35,206 nt of DNA from Vicugna vicugna (taxonomy: Eukaryota). A program made the translations under genes and the position numbers. Location of the stretch: NCBI GenBank assembly GCA_013265495.1, contig PNXW01002911.1, positions 1-35,206 of the forward strand, read 5' to 3'. Of this stretch, positions 55 through 35,206 are shown in pieces. The notes below the pieces were generated by a model. It had not been told where the DNA came from, did no database searches, and saw only the letters and a list, made by a program, of their open reading frames with translations. Each line of letters opens with the position of its first letter. The stretch's first letter is position 1.

Positions 55-564
55 TGTTTCGGAAATGACAGGCCAGCCTAGAAACAAGCACCACACGGAT
101 TGTTGGAATACTCAGATGTATTATGCCGACGGACTCTTAGGGGCTTCTGTTCCGAAGCTCTGAGCACCTCCAAGACGTGCACATGAAGTTTTATAGGGTT
201 AATTAGAAGTATGCGCTATTAGCCAATAATGCTCAAACAATAAAAGCAAGGTATCAGTACACTGAAGCTTATCAATTTGGAACAGATCACGTTACTGATA
301 CTTGTTGAGCTTGGATTTACAATTTAGCTTGTTAGCCCAGTAAACTGACACTAAACTTAGGTTTACAAGTTAGCCCAGCAGAACTTATATCAGTAAACCG
401 ACACTTATCACACTTAGAGTTGTGACTTAGCTCGTTAGCCCAATATACTGACACTAAACTTCAGAGTTATGAGTTAGCCCAGCAGAACTCAGATCAGTAA
501 TCCGACACTTGTTACACTTAGATTCGTGAGTTAGCTTGTTAGCCCAGCTGGGCTTTTCCTCACA
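55..564 (-). repeat. 3' LTR (510 bp)
   Basis: Minus strand starts TGTGAGGAAAAGCCC directly after the PPT and ends ...TTTCCGAAACA. TATA (TATAAAA) at 189-195; poly(A) hexamer position reads AATACA (117-122); U3 tandem repeats. Confidence 0.95.
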
Positions 565-1048
565 TTCCCCCCTCTGATGCTTTCACAACCCTTGTTTGAG
601 TAAGCGTCATTATTTACCTGTTGCAGGTGTTTATAATTTGAGGCTAACATATGAAGTTTTATAGCCTCTATCCGCTCACTGACAAAGCGGGTCAGAAAGT
701 TTAGGACACAGGGCCCAAACAGCAGAACTGCAAAAATCAGTAGTAAGGGACCTATGAATGGTGTTACCCAGGAGGTCCAGCCCCAGAGTCCTGTCCATGG
801 GCTCATACCTAAAATATGTTTTCTCTTTTTCACTCGGTTTTGTAACTCTTGAACCATTTCTCTGACAATTTCTGATTGATTGGCATGAAACCAACACTCT
901 TTATTTAGGAAGAGGCATAGTCCCCCCTCTTTGGCCGTGAGTAAGTCCAGGCCCCTCCTGTTTTTTAAGCCACCTCGGCCAGAGAGTCAGTCTGATTTTG
1001 CAGAGTTCCCAGGGTTTTTGCTATTCATTGGAGATCGTGGCTGAATTT
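531..1048 (-). pseudogene. env: env remnant: TM subunit only (heptad, ISD, CX6CC, membrane anchor); SU deleted
   Basis: Translation KFSHDLQ*IAKTLGTLQNQTDSLAEVA/(frameshift ~969)/LKNRRGLDLLTAKEGGLCLFLNKECWFHANQSEIVREMVQELQ...PLLLIFAVLLFGPCVLNFLTRFVSERIEAIKL. Contains a CKS-17-type ISD; CX6CC is degenerate (C>W). Confidence 0.93.
565..575 (-). promoter_or_regulatory. Polypurine tract (AGAGGGGGGAA)
   Basis: Purine run directly 5' of the 3' LTR TG on the minus strand, gammaretrovirus-like GGGGGGAA end. Confidence 0.92.
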
Positions 1049-1081
1049 ACATTTAACAGCTGCATTGAGCTTTTCTCAAGT

Positions 1082-1205
1082 TTCGGCCGTGCGTTGACTA
1101 GCCAGCTTCCGGTTGTGGCTAGAGCTGGGCACGTTGATCCTCAGGCTTCGGCCGTGTGTTGACTAGCCAGCTTCCGGTTGTGGCTAGAGCAGGGCTCGTC
1201 GATCC
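1082..1205 (-). repeat. Tandem 65-bp duplication at the pol-end/env junction, each copy with a 7-bp hairpin
   Basis: Copies at 1082-1140 and 1147-1205; each has CTAGCCA-(11 nt incl. CCGGAAG)-TGGCTAG. Confidence 0.9.
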
Positions 1206-3620
1206 TTTTCTGGTCCCTCTTGATCTTGATCTTGAGCGGGTCTCCTGGGACACTCTCAATTTTCTAGGGACCGTCTGCCTGAGGTGCAGTTGCTCTCTTG
1301 ACCCTGGAGTGGTGGATCCAAGGGACGATTCCTGCAACTTTAACAGCTGTAGGAGTAGTTAATATCACTAAATATGGTCCCTTCCATGTTGGTTTGAGAG
1401 TTTTTTTTTTAATCCTTCACCCATACCTGGTCACCTGGTTTATGGGGTTGCACTTGAACCCCTAATGAAATGGGGGTTTTCTCTATCACCCAACCTCAAA
1501 CTTCTCGTAGTACTTTTTCTAGTCCCAACAGTTGTTGGTGGAACCCTAAATTTCCTATTTCTGGGGTGGGATTTCTCATCCTGACTAAAGTTCGCGGTCG
1601 CCCATAGAGGATTTCAAAGGGAGAGTACCCAATATTAAATCTTGGGGTGCATCTAATTTGTAACAGTGCCTGGGGTAGAATGCCCACCCAGGGGAGCTGG
1701 GTTTCTTGGCTGATTTTAGCTATAATTTGTTTTAGAGTCCAGTTTATTCGTTCTAACTTCCCTGAGCTTTGAGGCCGGTATGCTGTGTGCAGGTTCCAGA
1801 GGATGCTCAGTGACTTTGCCACTTGCTGTACAATTTCTGACACAAAGGTGGGTCCATTGTCAGACCCAATGGAGGTAGGCATTCCAAATCGAGGGATAAC
1901 ATCCCTGAGAAGAGCCTTTGTCATTTCCCTTGCTTTCTCTGTCCTGGTGGGTTAGGCCTCTACCCACCCTGTGAAGGTGCAGACGAAAACCAGCAGGTAC
2001 TTATATCCCTTACTGGGCTCAAGTTCAGTAAAGTCCACTTCTAAATCTTCAAAGGGAGCCAATCCACATCGTTGTATTCCCATTAGCCCAGTGAGCCCTT
2101 GTTTTGGATTGTTTTGTGCACAGAGCAAGCAGCGTTGGGAAACTGATGCACATAGAGTAGGGAGACGAGAAATTAGGAAATATCGCTTTAAGAGGGCCTC
2201 TAAAGCCGTTTTTCCCATATGTGTGGCTTTGTGCTGTTGTTGGACTAAACGATAAGCTAGTCATTCTGGGATGAAAACCCTTCCATCAGTCATGACCCAC
2301 CATCCGTCCTTTCCTTTCTCTCCTCGTTCAGCCTGTGCCCACTTGTTTTCATCGTGACTATATTCTGGGGCAGTGGGTAGCTCTGGCGCTGCCATAACTT
2401 TAATTACTGAGTGTTCCCAGGCGGCTGCTCCTCTTGCCTTTTGATCAGCTAGCCTTTTCCCTTGGCTCACAGGGTCATTTCCTCTTTGGTGTCCCTTACA
2501 GTGAATAACGGCCACTTCCTTTGGATCCCATACTGCCTCCAGTAACTGTAAAATTTCTTTTTTGTTTTTGATTTCTTTTTCCCCAGCAGTTAAAAGTCCT
2601 CTCTTCTTATAGATGGCTCCATGTACATGCAAGGTTGCAAATGCATATTTGGAATCAGTATATATATTGACTCATTTTCCTTTCCCTTTTCTTAGTGCCT
2701 GGACCAGTGCCCAGATCTCTGCTCGCTGAGCAGACCATCCTGGGGGAAGGGACTCTGCCTTTATTACCTCTCGGGTTGTTGTTACAGCGTAACCTGCACG
2801 CCGTTGTCTATCTTGTATGTAACTGCTGCCATCTGTGAAAAGTTCCAGGTCTGGGTTTTGCAGGGGCTTGTCGGTTAGATCAGGCCTGCTTGCGTACACC
2901 TCTTTAATGATTTCTTCGCAGTTGTGGTCAGGCTGTCCTTCCCCCTCAGGCAAATATGTGGCTGGGTTTAAGGTTCGCACAGTCTCTAGACGGACTCTTG
3001 GATTTTCACATAGAAGCCCCTGGTAGTGGGTCATCCTTGTGTTAGTTATCCATTTGTAACCTGGGCCGTTTATCAGGGCCACCACAGAATGGGGCACTTT
3101 TACATTTAAAGTCTGTCCCAGTGTGAGCTTGTTTGCCTCATTGACCAGGAAGGCTGTGGCAGCGAGGGCCCGTAAACAGGGTGGCCATCCTGATGCTACA
3201 GGGTCCAGTCTTTTAGATAAATAGGCCACAGGGTGCTGTCACGGCCCCACGTTCTGAGTTAGGACTCCAAGAGTAGTTTGGTCTCTTTTATGTACAAACA
3301 GATTTAACTGTCGTATTACATCTGGTAAGCCTAGTGCTGGGGCTTGGGTTAGTAGTTTCTTTAGTTGTCTAAAGGCATTTTTTTGTTTAGTTTCCCATTT
3401 GAGGGTTTCTTTTTCTGATCCAGCAGTTGTTTCATAGAGGGACTTGGCTATTCTTGAAAAGCCGGGGATCCATATCCAGCAAAGCCCAGCTGCACCCAGG
3501 AACTCTCGCAGTTTTCTTTTTGTTTCCGGTCTGGGTATGGCACAAATAACTTGTTTTCATTCTGGTCCTAGGGCTTGGTGTCCCTCTAAGATAATAAATC
3601 CCAAGTATTTGACTGTCTTT
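1141..3620 (-). pseudogene. pol: pol remnant: RT C-terminal part (thumb/connection), RNase H, integrase
   Basis: VKYLG...LREFLGAAG...PVAYLSKRLDPVASGWPPCLRA. RNase H motifs FTDGSS, SAQRAE, IYTDSKY, IHCKGHQ. IN motifs HKATH..CLLC, VDFTE, SDNGP, SSGKLER, WKGPY. One frame with nonsense codons at 3557, 3239, 2672, 2261, 1952, 1496 and 1409, then a frameshift in the A10 run at 1401-1410, a further stop at 1264, and the terminal stop at 1141-1143. Confidence 0.95.
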
Positions 3621-3967
3621 TTGGCCTGGACCGGCTGAGCTGCTAATATCTTGTATTGTCCAGGTCCATTTGAGCAAAACCAAATCCATGGGGGTAGAGT
3701 CTGGGCAATATTTAGCCAGGAGTCAATGTAAGGGAATTGATTTGGGTGGCCTGGGGTTTCAGTGATTATTTGATAGACTGTTTGCACCTTTGCTAGGTCC
3801 AGAGTTTCTCCTGAGGGCCACCCAACTCCAAAGGCCGGCCATTCAAGCTCACACAAAGTGCGGAGCCTGCCAGGGGTCATTCGAATTCCATAGTCTCCTG
3901 GGAACCCCTTTTTGAAATTCTTAATCATGCAGTCTAGAGTGGTGGGTTTTGACTTAGAGCCTCCCAT
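3621..3967 (-). pseudogene. gag: gag remnant: myristoylated matrix (MA) domain, fused in frame to pol (junction approximate)
   Basis: MGGSKSKPTTLDCMIKNFKKGFPGDYGIRMTPGRLRTLCELEWPAFGVGWP...PGHPNQFPYIDSW: MGxxxS myristoylation motif, gamma-type MA motifs, good Kozak (ACAATGG). Confidence 0.92.
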
Positions 3968-4040
3968 TGTTTTTAGATGTTTAAGGATAATAGTCCTGTT
4001 GCTTTAGATGTTTGGGAAGGTAGACTTTATATCTTTTTTT

Positions 4041-4561
4041 TTACTCTTTAAGACACCGGAGTTTCCAGAGAGACTGCTCTCTTGCTTGGTCTATGAGTTG
4101 TTTTAAGGCTAACTTGGTCAGGGACTCTGGGTTCCAGTCACAGCTGATGTCTCTGGAGCTCAAGGCCTCAAGTAGTTTTAGGGACTTGTTTCATTAAATC
4201 CTCTCTATATTCTGAACTAATGTATCAGGGGCATGGGACTGACAGCAGATGGCAAAACAAATGGACTAGGAAAGGGACCTCCAGGGCCAGGCAAGCCCGG
4301 TCCTGAAGGAATTCGTCTTCTAAACTTGAGTCCTGCGGGTCTGAGGCTAGGGAAAAGGGGCACTACTTTGGTCACTTCAGTAGGGGAACAATAAGTCTTG
4401 GGTGTTCTGTGCCAGAGTCAGGTAGGAGACTTTTTCAGAGAAATAGTATCCTAGCCTCCAAGGGTACAGGGGCGTTGACACATTGGCTGTCTATGTTCTT
4501 TTCCCTCCCAGTGTAGCCACCCTGTGCCGGTGTCGCAGACAAGACAAGGGAGGGTTTTCAT
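4041..4561 (-). pseudogene. Possible decayed pre-gag ORF in the leader
   Basis: ATG at 4561 opens MKTLPCLVCDTGTGWLHWEGK. Protein-like segments in shifting frames (SLEDEFLQDRACLALEVPFLVHLFCHLL; LKLLEALSSRDISCDWNPESLTKLALKQLIDQAREQSLWKLRCLKE*) end 74 nt before the gag ATG; several stops and frameshifts. Confidence 0.35.
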
Positions 4562-4847
4562 TGCGTCCGCCTGTCCACTCCCCTCATGGGGACGTAGGTG
4601 CCTCTTAGCTTTGGCGGGTCAGTATAAGCCGCTGACTCCGATCGGGACCCTGAGGGACCGATACCACCCTGAGCCGTATGAGGTCACCACGGAACCACAG
4701 GTTGGGACTCATTCGAATTCCGTAGCACAATGCTGTGGAGCTACAAACTCGAGCCTGATCGCATGCTTTATAGGCCGCTCATTTACTCATATACACACAC
4801 ACACAGAGGTTAACAACAGTCCTTCCACCAATTCCAATATCCTGTTT

Positions 4848-5003
4848 CCTGTAGGAGGGGATCAGCCTCCTCTTCTGTCCACTGGGACAGGACCTGATTC
4901 CTGACCTGATTCCTGATTTCCCCATCTGAAATACCATCAGACGGAAAGCCTGTAGGATGGGATCAGCCTCCTCTTCTGTCCAGTGGGACAGGACCTGATT
5001 CCT
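4848..5003 (-). repeat. 55-bp direct repeat (x2) with hairpins in the leader, probable packaging/dimerisation region
   Basis: 4848-4902 and 4949-5003, 2 mismatches; each has a CTGTCC-N4-GGACAG stem plus an outer ATCAG/CTGAT stem. Confidence 0.8.
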
Positions 5004-5223
5004 TCCTGGGGATCCTACCTTGTCCGGACGGCCACCTGGTGAGTCTGTCCGTCCTCCACGGAGTCTGGCTCTGGTTGTAGCCCAGCCACCCGGGGGCCGA
5101 GTTGCTGTCACGAAAGAGAACCCGGAATACCGTCAGGCGGCGCCACCTCATTCGCTGCCAGAGTCCCATCCCCCGGTCGGCCGGAGCCACCAGTCCAGCG
5201 GCTCAAGGGGCCGGCGTGGTTGT

Positions 5224-5241
5224 ATCTCACTGGGGCCTCCA
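5224..5241 (-). promoter_or_regulatory. Primer binding site, tRNA-Thr
   Basis: TGGAGGCCCCAGTGAGAT 4 nt after the 5' LTR; 17/18 match to the recalled complement of the tRNA-Thr(TGT) 3' end (TGGAGGCCCCAGCGAGAT), mismatch at a CpG. Confidence 0.85.
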
Positions 5242-5245
5242 GAAA

Positions 5246-5693
5246 TGTTACGGAAATGACAGGCCAGCCAAGAAACAAGCACCACACGGAGGGTTGGAGT
5301 ACTCAGATTTATTACACCGGCGGGCTCAGAGGGACTTCTGCTCCGAAGCTCTGAGCACCTCCAAGACGTGTACATGAGGTTTTATAGGGTTAATTACAAG
5401 TATGGGCTATTAGCCAGTAAGGTTCAAATAACAGAAAGGAAGGAATCAGTACACTGGAGCTTATCAATTTGGAACAGATCACATTACTGACACTTGTTGA
5501 GCTTGGATTTACGAGTTAGCTTGTTAGCCCAGTAAACTGACACTAAACTTTAGATTTACAAGTTAGCCCGGCAGAACTTATATCAGTAAACCGACACTTA
5601 TTACACTTAGATTTGTGACTGAGCTCGTTAGCCCAATAGACTAACACTAAACTTTAGATTTATGAGTTAGCCCAGCTGGGCTTTTCCTTTACA
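5246..5693 (-). repeat. 5' LTR (448 bp)
   Basis: Homologous to 55-564; TATAAAA at 5380-5386, AATAAA at 5308-5313; one 65-bp U3 unit fewer than the 3' LTR. Confidence 0.95.
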
Positions 5694-5959: not shown

Positions 5960-7126
5960 TGTATTAATTTTCTACTGCAGCTGTAAAATATTATCACAAA
6001 ATTAGTGATTTAAAGCAACACAAATTTATTATCTTACAGTTTTGTAGGTCACAAATCTGACACAGGTCTCACTGGGCTAAAATTAAGATCTTGGGATGTC
6101 TGTATTCTCTTCATCTCTTCTGGGTAGAGGCAAATCCATTTCCTTTCTTTTTCCAGCTTATAGAGGTCACCCACATTCATTGGCTTTTGGTGCTTTTTCT
6201 CCAACCTCAAAGCAAAAATGATTGCTTCTCTCTGATCCATCTTCCATAGTCGCATAACCCTATGACCATAGCTGGGAAAGGTGCTTTGATTTTAAGGACC
6301 CAATGTGGTTAGACTGGGTCTGTTAGAGCAGGCAGATAGCTAGATATGAGCAGAGAAAGGGGGACACAGACCAAAATGCAGGAATTAGGCAGAAAGGAGG
6401 GGCAGAGGCCAAATGCAGGAAACCACACATCATGTGAGCAGCAGGGATCCTTGGGCAGAGAAAGAAAAGCTGGAATCTTTGGGTTGATAAGGGACCAAAA
6501 CTTTTGGCTTGGAGACCAACAAAGAAAGGTCAGAAAAGGCAGGAATTTCCAGTGTCTGAATGTAACCATTTTGCCCATTATGCCCTCATTTCAATAAAAT
6601 TAGCCTTACAGATCAAAAGTACCCATCATGCACTGATGCCATGACACTTCCAATCCAGACTAAATAAGGACAAAAATCCCTCCTCCCTTTGGGAAGGTGG
6701 AGTTGGGATGATAATCAGGGAATACGACCCCCAACCCTCCCTCCCCAGTGAATATTCTGCCCATTCATTTTTACACCCTATGTAACAAACTTGCCAAAGA
6801 AACTCAAGGCAGCTGCTCACCTGAGCCTGCCCGCTCTCCCCTGAGAGTGTACTATCCACCCCTTAATAAATCCTCACTTTACCTTTTTAACCTCTAAGTC
6901 TTGTCTCTGAATTCTTTCTGGGATGGGACAAGAACCTGGAACACCAGTTGCACCTATCGGCGACAGGCACTTGGATAATCTCTTCATCTCAAGGTTGGTA
7001 CTTCATCTCAGGTAACCTTATTAATATCTGCAAATTCCCTTTTGCTATGTAAGTTAAACACATTTAAGTTTCCAGGAATTAGGATGTGGATATCTTTGGG
7101 AGGAGGGCCATTATTTTGCTTAGCAC
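5960..7126 (-). mobile_element. MLT1 (ERVL-MaLR) LTR, split by a younger solo LTR
   Basis: tgtattaattttctactgcagctgt...aacacaaatttattatcttacagtt start; ...ttccaggaattaggatgtggatatctttggg...gccattattttgc end. Confidence 0.8.
6321..6965 (+). mobile_element. Solo ERV1 LTR (MER50/MER83-like start)
   Basis: TGTTAGAGCAGGCAGATAGCTAGATATGAGCAG...CA; AATAAA at ~6864; interrupts the MLT1 sequence. Confidence 0.8.
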
Positions 7127-7415: not shown

Positions 7416-9872
7416 AAGAGTGGGGATTAAAACCCAAGGATCCTACTTTTGTTTCTAAGGTAGACTTTCCAAATCAAGAGATGAAATACATTTTGAGCCA
7501 GTATCCCCATGGATTGATTGTAGAATTTATAAATTTACTTTTATTGATGGACTTATAATAAGTAATGGAATTTACTGGACTTCCACACGTGTATAGTGAC
7601 ATAGTGGATCCTTAGCCCTTATAATAGGGCCTTATTCATAACACAGAATATGACCTAATTTGATCTCAGTTGATCTCATTTGATCTATAGTTTATTGATT
7701 TCATAAATATCAAGTTGAGTTGATTCCTTCTATTCCTAGTTTTCCGAGTTTTCTGTTTGTACCATGAATGGGTGTCACACTTGGTCAGATACTTTTTAAG
7801 CATCAGTTGATGTGATCAGATGATTTCTCTTCTTTAGCCTGTTGATGTGGTGGATTATACTGATTGACTTTTAAATATTGAACCAGACTCGTATCCTTGA
7901 AATAAACTCCACATGTTCTTTATATGTTCCTGGATTTTATTTTCTAATATTTTGTTAAGAATTTTTGCTTGTATATTCATGAGGGATATTTGTCTGAAGT
8001 TATAATTTTTGTACTACCTTTGTCTTACTTCAGTTTCAGGGTAATAGCAGCTTCATGGAATGAGTTGAGAAGGGTGCCTCCTCCTCTGTTTTCTAGAAAA
8101 GATTGTGGAGAAGTTCTAGCTGGGGAAAGAAGGCAAGAAAGGGAAATAGAAGACATAAATTAGGAAGGAAGAAATATACTGTCCCTATTTGCAAGTGACA
8201 TGATAGTCTATGTACAAAATTCAAGGAAATCTACAAAAAACTTCAAGAACTAAAAAGTGAGTTCAGGAATTTAGACTATAAAATAAACGTTCAAAAATCA
8301 ATTATGCTTCTGAATGTTAGCAATGAAAATGTATAAACCAAAGTTATATAAAAATACCATTTATATCCATTCAAAATTAGTTGTAAATTTAATAAAACAT
8401 GCAGGACTTGTATACTGAAAACTACAAAACACTGATGAAATAAATCAAATGAAGAAACAAACCATGTCCATTGATTGAAAGACTCAACATAGTAGAGCAT
8501 TGCAAAGATGTCATTTCTCCCCAAATTAACATACAGATCCTATAAATATCTCAGGGAGATTTTTATAGATGTAGACAACATTATATTGAAAAGTGAAGGA
8601 ACTAGAATAGCTTAAACAATTTTCAAAAAGAAGAATAAAGTAGGAGAACTCACTCTACCCTGAGTTCAAGAATGATGATATACCACAGAAACCAAGGCTG
8701 TGGTGGTCCTGGTGAAAAGAGAGGCACAGAGATCATTTGGATAGAATAAAGAACTTAGAAATAAACCCATACAAATACAGTCAACTGATTTTTTTCTAAA
8801 GGTGTAAAAGCAATTCAATGAAAAATGAATAATCTTCATAATAAACAGTGCTGGAGCAATTGGATGTCCACAAGCAAAAAAAAGAAAACAAAACAAAACA
8901 AAAGTTTCAACGTAAGCCTCACATGTTATACAAATACTAACTTAAACTGATTAATACGTTTAAATGTGAAATGTAAAACTATAAACATTTTGAAGATGAC
9001 ATAGGAGAAAATTTTCAGTACCTAAAGTGAAGATTTATTAAGGACAACACAAAAAGCATTATTCACACAAAAAATGATAAATTAAACTTTATGAAAATTA
9101 TAGACTTTTGCTCTAGAAAACCTTATTAAGGAAATTGAAAAGACAAAAGACACAGACTGAGAGAAAATATTTGCAAGTGATATATCTGACAGCAGACTCA
9201 CATGTAAAACATATAACGAACTTTCAAAAATCAATATAAAAATAGCAAATAATCTAATTAGAATATAAGCATAGAGAAGAGAAATTTCACTGACAGGAGT
9301 ACATTATGGCAAATTAGTACATGAAAAAATGTTTAATGTCATGTTTAATGTGCCATTAGCAAAATACAAACTTAGATAACAATGATGTATTAAGCCACAC
9401 CTCTTAGAACAGCTGAAATAAGAAATAGTGACAATACCAAATCAGCATTTGGGAAGGACGTGGGGCAAGTGGATCTCTCATATATGGCTGGTGGGGATAT
9501 AAAATGGTATAGACACTTGAAAACAGTTTGGCAGTTTCTTAAAAGAACTAAATATATACTTATTATAAAATCCAGCAATAGTATTTCTGGGCATATATTG
9601 CACATTTATTGGAAATTTATGTCTACACAAAAACCTGTACACAGTTATTTGTAGAAGCTTTATTTGTAATAGCCCCAAACTAGAAGCAACCAAACTGTCC
9701 CTTGGGAGGTGATGGTTAAACAAATAGTGGTACATCCATACCATGGAATATTACTCAGTAGTGATCAGGAATGCCTGCACACCTTGGATGGATTTCAAGG
9801 ACATTACAATGAATGAAAAAAGCCAATCTCAAGAGATCACATGCAACATAATTTCCTTTATATAACATTCTT

Positions 9873-9923
9873 TTTTTCAACATTTTTTATTGATTTATAA
9901 TCATTTTACAATGTTGTGTCAAA
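9873..9923 (-). mobile_element. Extremely 5'-truncated young L1 3' end
   Basis: 16-bp TSD tttatataacattctt (9857-9872 / 9924-9939); insert matches the 3' end of the L1 at 34929-35125. Confidence 0.85.
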
Positions 9924-10154
9924 TTTATATAACATTCTTGAAATGACAGACAGAGTTATAGAAATGGGAAAACAGATTAGTGGCTGCCAAGGGTTAAGGA
10001 TGGTGTTGAGCAGAGAATGTGAGCACGACTGTGAGGAAATAGCATAAGGGAGATGTTTGTGCTGGTGGAATATTTCTGTTTCTTGGTTGCAGTCATGCTG
10101 GGTAATGATGTAAATCAAATCACAGATTTTGTCCCACCTGGAGGAAAGAAATAT

Positions 10155-15030: not shown

Positions 15031-17515
15031 TAATCCAAGCTTGTTTAATGGCACAAATAAAAAATAAAAACAAAAGGAAAGCAATCTGCCCCCCACCTTA
15101 ACCACCATAGCACAGTTCATCCATCCTGGCAGGGGGAAAGAGAAAAAATTAGATTAACACAGAGTATGAATACAAGAGTAAAAATCAAAAAATGGTAGAT
15201 TTTAGAAAAATTCAGGGATCCTATTTCCATATTTTTATCTGAGTTTGCAATATTTGTGATTGATCCGCCCCCGCCTCCCCATCTCTGACAACAGGTTGTC
15301 ACATATTTCTAATCACAAAGGCAAAATCACAGAAAGTCCTGTATTTTCAAGCCACTGCTCAATGGAGGGCACTTATCAGCTTTGGCTACTAGGATTAGCC
15401 ACCACTCAAGTGCTACTGGATTCAAGAGTCTTCAAATGGGGATTCCAGCCATTCCTTTCAAATACATAATAGTTCTGAGTTTTGGAGAACATGTAACATA
15501 CGTATTTTTCTTGAATTTGGAAAATTTAGGGCAGAGAAGCCGTTGTGTTTTTCTCTCCTCTAGGGATTAAGACTTAATATAGGGGAAAAAGCAAAGGAGA
15601 CAATAGATGCAAAGTGGTCTATATGTGTTTTTGTGTAATAAAATCTCATTGCACTGAGTCTCCAGTGGAAATCCTCTTCCATCCTGGTGGGAAGGGAGCG
15701 CTGGCATCTGCACGTGTGCTGGGTACCTTCTCCAGCTGCTTGTTTACTTTTCTCAATTGGGTACTTGTAGAAGTTACCTCCACTGTGGAATTAACAAGTA
15801 ACCTTACCCTGAAAAGTATTTCTGCAGTGTTTCTTGAATGGTTCTTCAACCACAACAATGCTTGTGAGTGGCTGGGAGTGTTAGGTTCTGTTCTGCTGCC
15901 ACTTCTGGGATTTTCTTTGAAATCTGTGGACTCTGAGTCTCTTACGTGTCTCTTCAGAAAGTGAGGTTTTGGGACCTAGGCAAGATCAGCACATGAAAAC
16001 CTCCAAGAGAGAATAATACTTTCCTGTCTTTAGATCTCTTCATCAAGGATAAAGGTGAGTGAGTCAGCCAGACAGCTGAATCACAAATACTCATCAGTTG
16101 CCTCCTATGTGCCAGGAAGAGGGGACAGAGTGACCAATGGCTGGCACAGCCCCAGTCCGAGGGAGGCTGTCACCTAGTGTGGAAGAGCGACATGGAATAA
16201 GTGACTTTGTGTTCACATCAACAGTCGAAGGAGCCCAGAAGTTAGTTATTCCCATACATGGAGTAGGGGCAAACGATTTTTCTCACTCACTCTAAAGAAG
16301 CCACTTGCCCCCAAGCGTATATTTTACTGAAAACAATAAGAGGGATTTTTATCTCACAGGACGGGAAACACCATTTCTCACCAAACCTGTGGACTTGATC
16401 TATATTCCCAAGTTCCTCACAGCCATAGAGCCACAGGTTTTCTCTCTCTTTTGACTCTTCTCCAAACCTCTCTAGTTCCAGTCCTCCATTCCAGATCTTT
16501 CCTTGAATCCTTTCTCTCCTTCCTTAAATAGAACAAATTAATTCTGTTTCAGCTCTTTCTAACTTTCATAGCTGCCTCTAAAAACTGATTTAGCAAGCAG
16601 CATACCTGCCAATTATCAGGAATTTCTCTCATTAAAAGGCAAGGGGATAATATGTAATACTTTTGATTTCCTCACCTATGTCTCCACCCACTGCAGTGTT
16701 TCCACCTCTTTGCAAAGTCTTCCCAATTGGTTTGAGAGTTCCCAGCTGATATTTCACATGTACTTACAAAGTGCTGTCAGTCACCAGATGACATCCTCCA
16801 CCTGTTTACTTTTCTGTTTTAGCCCCCTGTGGTTTTCCTATCTGTGGCGGATAACTTCGATGCCTACATAGTCACATAGTCCAGTGAAGGGGCCTTGGCT
16901 CTGCCTCCAGGATTTTCAGCCAAGCTCCCTCCTTTTAGACAGAGCTGCCAGTCCACAGCCTGCTGATATTCGAGTGCCAGAGCAGAGCCATAGAATCTGA
17001 TGCCCCTAGGATATAGAATATATTCTAAGAATATGTGCTGAGTGACATTGTGTTCATCGTGCAAGGAGGGAGAATGCTTTCCCACTCCTTTTGTCATCAG
17101 AGAGGTCATATGAACACTAGAGGGTTTTTCCATTGACAGCATTTTTGGACTAACAGCATCCTCTTGCTGTGTAGTCTCATTATATTCTTTGCTTCAGAGA
17201 ATTAGGATTTAACATGCCATTACCTGAAACATGTTACTGATGATGATAGTCTTTTTAAAGATTATATTTGTATTACACATATTTTACTCACATTACTATC
17301 CACTAGAATGGGGCTTCCATTCTAGGCTGTCATTTTCCCAGGGCCTAGAATAGTATATGATCCATAGCAGATAGATAATAATTATTTGTTGATTGAATAA
17401 ATGGATGCATTGTCTCTGTGTTGCAATCTACACTTTACTATATGTCATTAACATTTTGGATTATATACCTTACCTCCCTAAGTAGATTTTAAGTTGTCTT
17501 TTAAGCAAGGACTAC

Positions 17516-20261: not shown

Positions 20262-20637
20262 AACTAACTACATTATATTATAGACATTATATCTAATTAG
20301 AGTGTATATTTATATATTGTGTAATATTACATATTTATAAAATTTACATATACAATTTTATGTATATGTAATGAAGTTAGAATGAAAATTGGAATGCTTG
20401 TAGCTAACCCTACAAAACTGTAATGTGTTTTCTTGTAAAAATCTTTAAAAACTAACTACATTATATTGTAGACATTATATCTAATTAGAGTGTATATTTA
20501 TATATTGTGTAATATTACATATTTATAAAATTTACATATACAATTTTATGTATATGTAATGAAGTTAGAATGAAAATTGGAATGCTTGTAGCTAACCCTA
20601 CAAAACTGTAATGTGTTTTCTTGTAAAAATCTTTAAA
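20262..20637. repeat. 188-bp tandem duplication
   Basis: 20262-20449 and 20450-20637, one A/G mismatch seen. Confidence 0.95.
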
Positions 20638-31441: not shown

Positions 31442-32526
31442 AACCAAATGATATCAAAATGTTCAAATATAGATAAATAATTCAAAGTCAATTTTATTTT
31501 TACTAGATATTAAAGGATGCATGATGCAATACAAGCCATATTAATATGCCACAGAGATTTCCATACCTATGCTCTTTCTCTCTGACTCCCAAGGATGTGC
31601 CTTCTTATAAGACCATGATGACATATAAATGATTTTTAAGCTAATATATATATATCTTTTGATATTTTTCAAGAGTGAAAGTTACAATAGCTAACATTTA
31701 TTTTTATAAGATAAGAAAGACATCTTTCTCATTACAGAGTCATAAAATACATTTCAAGGAAACTAGGGGCATAGAGGGTATAGAAATTAAAAACTTATCT
31801 GTAAATAAATTTTCTTACAAAATATTGCTTCCAGTTTCTAGATATCAAATCATAATTTTCTCGTTAAAATATTTGCTACATCCAAATACCAAGTGCATGC
31901 TTTTCAAAGATTTATTAGCTCATTAATGATTGAAATAGTTAAAGGGTAAAGCTGTTCTGAAGAGCATTTTGAGGAACCAAGCAAGCATAGGCATTTAAAA
32001 TTCAGGACTCAGTGTGCATGAAGACCCCGAACAGGTGAAACTATCTGACTGTGACAGAAGCCAGGAGCATCTTATGGTTCAGAAAGAGAAAAGAGAAAAC
32101 TTATGAAACGCTGAAGGTGCTCAATGTCTTGAACCATGTCTTGGTTGCAGAGTTTAACCCTATGTCAGCATCCATCCAGCTGTAGACGGGATTGGTGCGC
32201 CGACCCCGCACGTTACCTGGGTATGGATTTTATAGCCCGAGTGAAAAAGAAGAAAGAAAAGTCCATTCTACCGACCTCATGATACCGGTTAGCACAGTGT
32301 TTCAGCACAGGCTCTGAAGGCAGGTCAAATCAGTCCGCCCCTAATAAGATATCTGACCTTTGATGATAGACTTAACCTCTCTAAGCCTTGGATTTCTTCT
32401 CTCTGGAAGGGAGATGCATGGTAACACCTACCTTGTAGAGTCCAGGGAAGAATTCAATAAGACGGTGTTCACGAGGCACATGGCACTCACCCTGGACCCC
32501 CCCGCCTAGCCACGGCCCCCACGTAC

Positions 32527-33020
32527 TAGCAGAGCCTCCGGGAGGTTGTGCCCCTCCATGAAGGTGATGATGGCAGAGGTGATGCCCAGGGCGCTGAGCT
32601 CCAGCGTGGCGGTGCTGATGGTGTCTACATCCTGGGCCCAGCCCACCTGGAAGAACAGGGCCACCTTCCTGAGCAGAAGGCCCGAGCGCACGCGCTTGAA
32701 CAGGTGTCTTGCCACAAACCTCATGGCGCCCCCGAGGCTCCTGCTGCCGGAGGGCGCTGCCAGGGCCGCCTCCCCGAGCACCCACAGGAGCGCGGGCCTG
32801 CCCCGGTAGTCGGAGAAGCGAACCAGGTGGTCTGTTCTGCTGTTGTACGAGACCACAGCCACCCGGGGCCCCGTGGGGCAGTTACCCCCACTTATGTCTA
32901 TCTTCATCAACAGAGAGACAACAATGTCTCTCCTCCTCTCAAACTCCAGCTGGGAGACGTCATTTGATGTGTCCAAGGTGAAGACCAGGTCAGCCGGGAA
33001 CACTGGGCATCTGGAGACAC
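32527..33020 (-). CDS. COL6A4: Collagen VI alpha-4-like exon encoding most of the first C-terminal VWA (C1) domain (gene possibly pseudogenised)
   Basis: tgtctag|GT acceptor (phase 1) and CTA|gtacgt donor (phase 0), 494 nt open. CPVFPADLVFTLDTS...CPTGPRVAVVSYN...AMRFVARHLFKRVRSGLLLRKVALFFQ..TATLELSAL..EGHNLPEA fits recalled alpha-4 better than alpha-5 or alpha-6. Confidence 0.85.
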
Positions 33021-33108
33021 CTAGACACATGGACACGCAGATTTGGGATTGTCTGTAAGGCCTCTCAACAGGGGAAGGCGGGCGTGAATAAGAAGGAATG
33101 TTATTTAC

Positions 33109-34928: not shown

Positions 34929-35125
34929 CATTTTGCAGAATAGATAAACAAGATTATACGGTGTAGCACAGGGAAAAATATATAAGATCTTGTGGTAGCT
35001 CATAGTGAAAAAAAAGTGACAATGAATATATACATGTTCATGTATGACTGAAAAATTGTGCTCTACACTAGAATTTAACACAACATTGTAAAATAACTAT
35101 TACTCAATTAAAAAATGTAAAAAAA
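34929..35125 (+). mobile_element. 5'-truncated young L1 3' end (camelid-type)
   Basis: gtgtagcacaggg...acacaacattgtaaa...caattaaaaaa poly(A); TSD aat(t/g)caaaaggtca (34915-34928 / 35126-35139). Confidence 0.85.
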
Positions 35126-35206
35126 AATGCAAAAGGTCATGTTCATTACTAAAGGCTCTCCATTAATCCCTCTTCTTTAAACGGAGGAAATAAAAGAACA
35201 GAGCTC

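Follow-up and report, generated by a model that had tools for sequence, protein, structure and literature searches.

An in-frame gag-pol fusion at a short in-register repeat in a decayed class I endogenous retrovirus of a camelid

The closest known case to the provirus described here is the mouse IAP 1-delta-1 element, from which the in-frame gag-pol fusion is already known as a type. In the accessible parts of two accounts (PMC6466679, PMC7411935), IAP 1-delta-1 elements are class II, non-autonomous and active, with many known insertions; they combine an internal deletion of parts of gag and pol, one fused frame and retained cis elements, and a role of the fusion in cis has been tested. Among class I proviruses, HERV-H and ERV-9 are described as having multiplied via the proteins of intact relatives (PMC8775094, citing Belshaw), and the available portion of that source states no fused gag-pol frame for them. 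Short direct repeats have been reported at large retroviral deletions and attributed to reverse transcriptase errors (bioRxiv 10.64898/2026.03.31.715508, in part); the same preprint states that many deletions carry no repeats and that other mechanisms exist, and its defective HIV-1 proviruses, which are somatic, show a junction at a short repeat and deletion together with hypermutation.

The element analyzed here lies in a window of 35,206 nucleotides of Vicugna vicugna DNA and is built like IAP 1-delta-1, with an in-frame gag-pol fusion and retained LTRs, primer binding site (PBS) and polypurine tract (PPT). It differs in being class I, outside the class II IAP lineage, in being dead and known from one copy, and in lacking ∼2.3 kb that includes all of CA and NC. 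HERV-H and ERV-9 share its class and, possibly, its dependence on intact relatives, but it carries a fused frame and may or may not have spread in its deleted form; it resembles the HIV-1 cases in its repeat-bounded junction and in an accompanying G-to-A load, but is a germline sequence. The probable account, in our view, is that of a class I endogenous retrovirus (ERV), now decayed and once dependent on a helper, in which a jump of reverse transcriptase at a repeat made the deletion and the fused frame was a passenger that decayed neutrally after insertion.

Anatomy of the provirus and its fused frame

The provirus comprises 5639 bp (5.64 kb; positions 5693-55) on the minus strand, with all elements of the order LTR-PBS-gag-pol-env-PPT-LTR present (Table 1) and no N letters anywhere in the window. 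Its class I (gamma-like) domains are an MLV-type MA (PF01140), the MLVIN_C integrase tail (PF18697) and the TLV_coat TM (PF00429). A 65-bp U3 repeat unit of the 3′ LTR is missing from the 5′ LTR, and for the flanks to match as a 4-bp target-site duplication one must assume damage to the outermost bases at the start of the 5′ LTR. The leader is presumed from its position to be the packaging region. The window was compared with contigs of four public sequencing runs, three DNA (2-Gb assemblies) and one RNA. Contigs exit the window at 1051 or 1048 into signal-peptide-like sequence. At 1138, 8-13 contigs per run exit into an env start unlike that of the window, a sign of a second subfamily whose envelope region differs.

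Table 1. Features of the provirus, by window position
Feature	Position	Strand	Description
5′ LTR	5246..5693	-	∼448 bp, start uncertain by a few bases; from alignment to the 3′ LTR
Primer binding site	5224..5241	-	TGG-led, 4 nt past the LTR; presumably tRNA-Thr type
Leader	3968..5223	-	∼1.28 kb (1278 bp); 55-bp direct repeat at 4848-4902 and 4949-5003
gag start, MA codons 1-118	3614..3967	-	PF01140; ends before the MA/p12 region
gag-pol deletion junction	3613..3623	-	11-nt repeat common to gag and pol, in one codon register
pol remnant	1412..3613	-	RT primer grip, thumb, connection, RNase H, integrase zinc finger and core; six stops
Integrase C-terminal tail, seventh stop, A-run frameshift	1264..1411	-	MLVIN_C, E 1.5e-16
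65-bp tandem duplication	1075..1204	-	between pol end and env start, 91% identical
env start codon (1065) and env deletion junction (near 1051-1048)	1048..1065	-	out of frame with TM
env TM remnant	531..1048	-	TLV_coat, E 1.7e-32; own stop and frameshift
Polypurine tract	565..575	-	read directly
3′ LTR	55..564	-	510 bp

A sequence-only reading of the window had placed the ORF pieces starting at 3967, 3229, 2632, 2218 and 1924 in one frame of about 850 codons, with six nonsense codons and no frameshift. Translation of the window bears this out: the pieces form one common frame on the minus strand, running from 3967 to 1415 over 851 codons without a frameshift and interrupted by six internal stops (codons 137, 243, 432, 569, 672, and 824; five TGA and one TAA). 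With X at the stops, Pfam identified Gag_MA (residues 34-95), RT_RNaseH_2 (191-288), RNase_H (373-515), zf-H2C2 (579-617), and rve (638-732), so that the frame leads from Gag MA through the RT primer grip, thumb, and RNase H to integrase. CA, NC, PR, and RVT_1 gave no Pfam match in the fused frame, in agreement with the proposed loss of CA, NC, PR, and the RT catalytic core, and the catalytic motifs held to be intact are indeed kept (RNase H D/E/D/D; integrase HHCC and D,D,E). The span 1412-3967 thus stands as a frame, but 1412 is not its natural end: a seventh stop at 1411-1409 and an A-run frameshift have cut off the integrase tail, which continues to 1264 (MLVIN_C at 1410-1264) out of frame with the rest. 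Contigs of relatives differ from the window at both lesions. The N terminus of the frame carries G2 and S6, which we take to fit the N-myristoylation consensus, in a good start context. The analysis supports the earlier proposal of a non-autonomous ERV with an internal deletion, in whose ancestor translation from the gag ATG would have given MA-thumb-RNase H-IN with no readthrough needed; the product of the present copy would be at most a 136-residue MA stub.

The provirus lies downstream of, and on the same strand as, a host exon (32506-33108, minus strand) that matches the von Willebrand A domain (PF00092, E 1.3e-15) and presumably belongs to a collagen VI chain; the minus-strand frames 16864-17193 and 15646-15975 may be further exons and have no Pfam match. 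Some 630 bp from the 5′ LTR, an unrelated element at ∼6320-6965 on the plus strand (TG start, AATAAA, CA end), which we take to be a second LTR-like element, is apparently inserted in an older repeat. Two 55-bp copies of a short repeat end, at 9871-9925 and 35072-35126, lie in opposite orientation; the former splits an old L1-like stretch and has a flanking direct repeat of ∼15 bp. A 188-bp tandem duplication at 20262-20637 (99% identity) is either recent or an assembly artefact.

The gag-pol junction and the intact relatives

Gag-type contigs exit the window at 3613 and pol-type contigs enter it at 3623, each in at least three of the four public runs among the 24 rows listed. Consequently, bases 3623-3613 belong to both genes in the same register. 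Around this point the sequence is AQPVQAKKT-DRKK in intact Gag and KAQICKKTVKYLG in intact RT; KKT is common to the two, and gene model P0019 holds both intact sides. MA had been thought to run into RT directly after KK. The fusion itself is confirmed, but the join follows KKT, within the 11-nt repeat. Since the repeat stands in the same register in gag and pol, any jump between its copies gives an in-frame product. The in-frame join had also been counted as a one-in-three event, an estimate that does not hold for such a repeat: among chance repeats within this coding DNA, 86 of 212 pairs of at least 7 nt and 12 of 26 pairs of at least 9 nt are in register (overall 41-50%), which puts the prior for an in-frame join closer to 40-50% than to one third. 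At the env deletion of this provirus, the two sides are in different frames.

From comparison with P0131, P0013, and P0030, the DNA missing at the gag-pol junction would amount to ∼2.3 kb, made up of the 410 Gag codons that follow KKT in P0131 and roughly 345-360 Pol codons, and would have held p12, CA, NC, PR, and the RT fingers and palm. In the mechanism that we favor, reverse transcriptase would have jumped from one 11-nt copy to the other, at the MA end and the RT primer grip, dropping this stretch and, with K-K-T encoded by both copies in one register, leaving an in-frame product. A second deletion would have taken most of env, out of frame. Because LTRs, primer site, leader, and polypurine tract are kept, the deleted RNA could have relied on an intact relative for its packaging and copying. 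Once inserted, the copy would have gathered stops neutrally, in addition to a modest G-to-A load of APOBEC3-like type.

Among named proteins, a Vicugna pacos Gag comes nearest to the element (88% identity, BLASTP), and the MA part is identical at 80 of 89 residues to P0002 (XP_072794698.1) and at 107 of 118 to P0131 (XP_072804976.1), both V. pacos Gag. The pol part matches P0019 at 373 of 422 residues. Identity to these intact camelid relatives is thus ∼90% in MA and 88% in pol, and they retain what the window element lacks: P0131, a 528-residue Gag with MA, CA, and a zinc knuckle, keeps p12, CA, and NC, whereas P0019 keeps the RT core. P0002 and P0131 are annotated gag frames of 499 and 528 residues on different large contigs, and better-preserved relatives therefore exist in alpaca. 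In a quick, midpoint-rooted pol tree of 31 rows chosen from protein-search matches, the window element is sister to P0019 (support 99), the pair groups with bat ERVs (support 98), and both fall outside the MLV-PERV-REV clade (support 100), placing the element apart from the gammaretroviruses in the narrow MLV/REV sense.

Copy number and decay

Copy number, as the sequence-only reading rightly held, is the deciding point. The family is repetitive in the public runs, with 881, 795, 776, and 257 contigs on 3151 bp. None of the 32 pieces listed, of 2751, crosses the junction. In each listed run, 1-2 contigs of pol type and 2-3 of gag type run off at the junction, as against 8-13 at 1138, and the single pol-type run-off contig in two of the runs continues for at least 255 letters, as low-copy contigs do. 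The scarcity of junction run-offs is a weak hint that many copies pass through the fused join, read with the proviso that short contigs may be missing. That the deleted form has further copies appears to us slightly better than an even chance. Summed contig depth was not accepted as a measure of copy number, and in RNA run X16 a greater depth over MA than over the thumb was rejected as evidence of expression.

No exact copy was found in the 24 sequencing runs listed, in which the best word share is 0.36 and none reaches half. Among viral contigs, none of three candidate related loci proved real and the exact 24-nt junction motif had no match; of 67 metagenome contigs, four passed the filter with E about 1e-4 over 21-39 residues and were set aside as chance. 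Protein searches returned no fused protein among nine longer matches (all Gag or chimeric gene models), the best 120 of 498 near-length matches, three short junction-region matches (53-64% identity), or the best 150 of 7562 representatives. MA directly adjoined the thumb in none of 279 fetched proteins (66 matching MA, 212 the thumb, and two both); the two with both have ∼700-850 residues in between and are therefore ordinary Gag-Pol. These protein searches are weak, as ERVs are seldom annotated. In the literature, large clusters of short, possibly non-autonomous ERV1 elements are reported from V. pacos in the accessible text of PMC8605555, two of eight places in the PMC6675863 supplements held HERV16-int rows, and titles and abstract starts of open-access papers yielded no description of a camelid class I gag-pol fusion element without capsid.

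Differences from relatives in the fused frame look neutral. Of 32 in-frame rows among 40 shown of 537, with rows at broken codons excluded, 9 are silent and 23 change the residue, where neutrality matched by mutation type predicts 9.7 silent; the partners in this low-power comparison are relatives in other genomes rather than sister copies. The sequence-only reading had held that a dN/dS near 1 among copies, with ancestral stops in common, would speak against its proposal, and the differences classed here fit such a dN/dS. The test is blind to selection merely for an open frame, as in escape from nonsense-mediated decay (NMD), because such selection leaves dN/dS unlowered. Seven stops, one frameshift, and this silent fraction set the frame apart from a host-domesticated ERV gene, which keeps an open frame under purifying selection. 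Word shares of 0.30-0.36 with the sequencing runs correspond to ∼3.2-3.8% divergence from relatives, and at 3.4% divergence 5.9 stops are expected (3.5-7.8 across assumptions) where six are seen.

The one result against a passenger frame is the lack of frameshifts, which is only mildly unusual. For a stretch of 2553 bp that was picked after the fact, the probability of zero frameshifts is 0.0001-0.13 over nine assumption sets, 0.001-0.03 at 3.4% divergence, and 0.02-0.13 at 2%. Part of the divergence may have arrived in one burst without indels. In the three DNA runs, sense-strand A against family G exceeds T against C (75:44, 76:39, and 68:34, counts that include variation among relatives), and 10 of 15 G-to-A rows have a GA context compared with a background of 31% (p 0.005). 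Part of this bias is family-wide, as the reverse purine change is also in excess, and the modest excess may be APOBEC3-like; a GA-context G-to-A pattern is reported for APOBEC3D, F, and H in the available part of PMC6955324.

The LTR pair differs at 39 of 429 columns (9.1%; K2P 0.097), with 17 transversions, in addition to the 65-bp unit. Transversions also cluster at 1448-1800 (8 of 13 rows, compared with 2 of 19 further 5′; p 0.005). Across 55-1800, which takes in the 3′ LTR and the adjoining 3′ part of the provirus, transversions are numerous, most of them toward A on the sense strand; the provirus may be recombinant here, or the sequence close to the start of the window may be of lower quality. 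LTR dating was rejected on account of this odd load and no age is given.

Origin of the fused frame and its meaning

The main competing explanation is a lineage like IAP 1-delta-1, in which the deleted form reached many loci because its RNA gained in cis from translation of the long fused frame: either the 3′ UTR shrank from ∼4 kb to ∼1.2 kb, sparing the RNA from NMD, or an MA-led protein carried that RNA to helper particles. The mouse element, in which 1.9 kb of gag-pol is deleted and the fusion protein acts in cis, is a precedent in the parts of PMC6466679 and PMC7411935 available, and in RSV premature gag stops set off UPF1-dependent decay and leave less packaged RNA in the accessible text of PMC9143442. 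The absence of frameshifts, the low number of junction run-offs relative to 1138, and the V. pacos clusters of short ERV1 elements agree with such a lineage, and two large deletions in a provirus with all cis elements kept would suggest more than one round of replication. However, the repeat alone accounts for the frame, stops are no fewer than expected under neutrality, neither a junction-spanning contig nor a fused protein emerged from the pieces listed or the protein searches, and intact gag and pol forms occur in the same runs. We therefore regard this lineage as unlikely, and its fullest form, a multi-copy camelid class I parasite whose sole gene was a myristoylated MA-thumb-RNase H-integrase fusion lacking capsid and nucleocapsid, with the open frame selected in cis, as a little less likely still. 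The 11-nt repeat also suits end joining, and the fusion might instead be a one-off scar, left by microhomology-mediated host repair after integration or by a recombinant or misassembled join of two proviruses. The divergent, transversion-rich LTR pair with its 65-bp unit, the unclear target-site duplication, the transversion cluster, and the failure of any of the 24 runs to share half of the words are compatible with a scar, but the odd 3′ segment lies 1.8 kb away from the gag-pol junction, the window is free of N, and two separate deletions of more than 1 kb at one locus would arise less readily after insertion than during viral copying. Such an origin seems rather improbable. A role in trans, with the fusion co-packaged to deliver extra integrase and RNase H, acting as a dominant negative on the helper, or kept by the host, would draw on the myristoylation-type N terminus, good start context, and intact catalytic motifs. 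It is opposed by the first stop at codon 137, the lack of a purifying signal, and the failure of protein searches to return a fused homologue. Moreover, CA, NC, and the late domain, which drive retroviral co-assembly, are gone, the latter a PPPY motif, and for this reason established retrovirology makes a role in trans the least likely of all; the co-packaging and dominant-negative ideas of the earlier reading are accordingly very improbable.

A single decayed provirus of the helper-dependent, passenger-frame kind that we favor matters little in itself, internally deleted ERVs being common. Its use is methodological: given an 11-nt repeat in register, a fusion comes out in frame without any need for selection, and for that reason an open frame counts for little as evidence by itself. 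Should the junction turn out to be multi-copy and to lack shared lesions, the family could be used to ask whether non-autonomous ERVs retain long frames because of NMD escape or because of a cis-acting protein, as the fusion lacks CA and NC. A cis-selected lineage, if real, would stand beside IAP 1-delta-1 as a class I counterpart of independent origin, and the benefit in cis would need only MA, or only translation itself.
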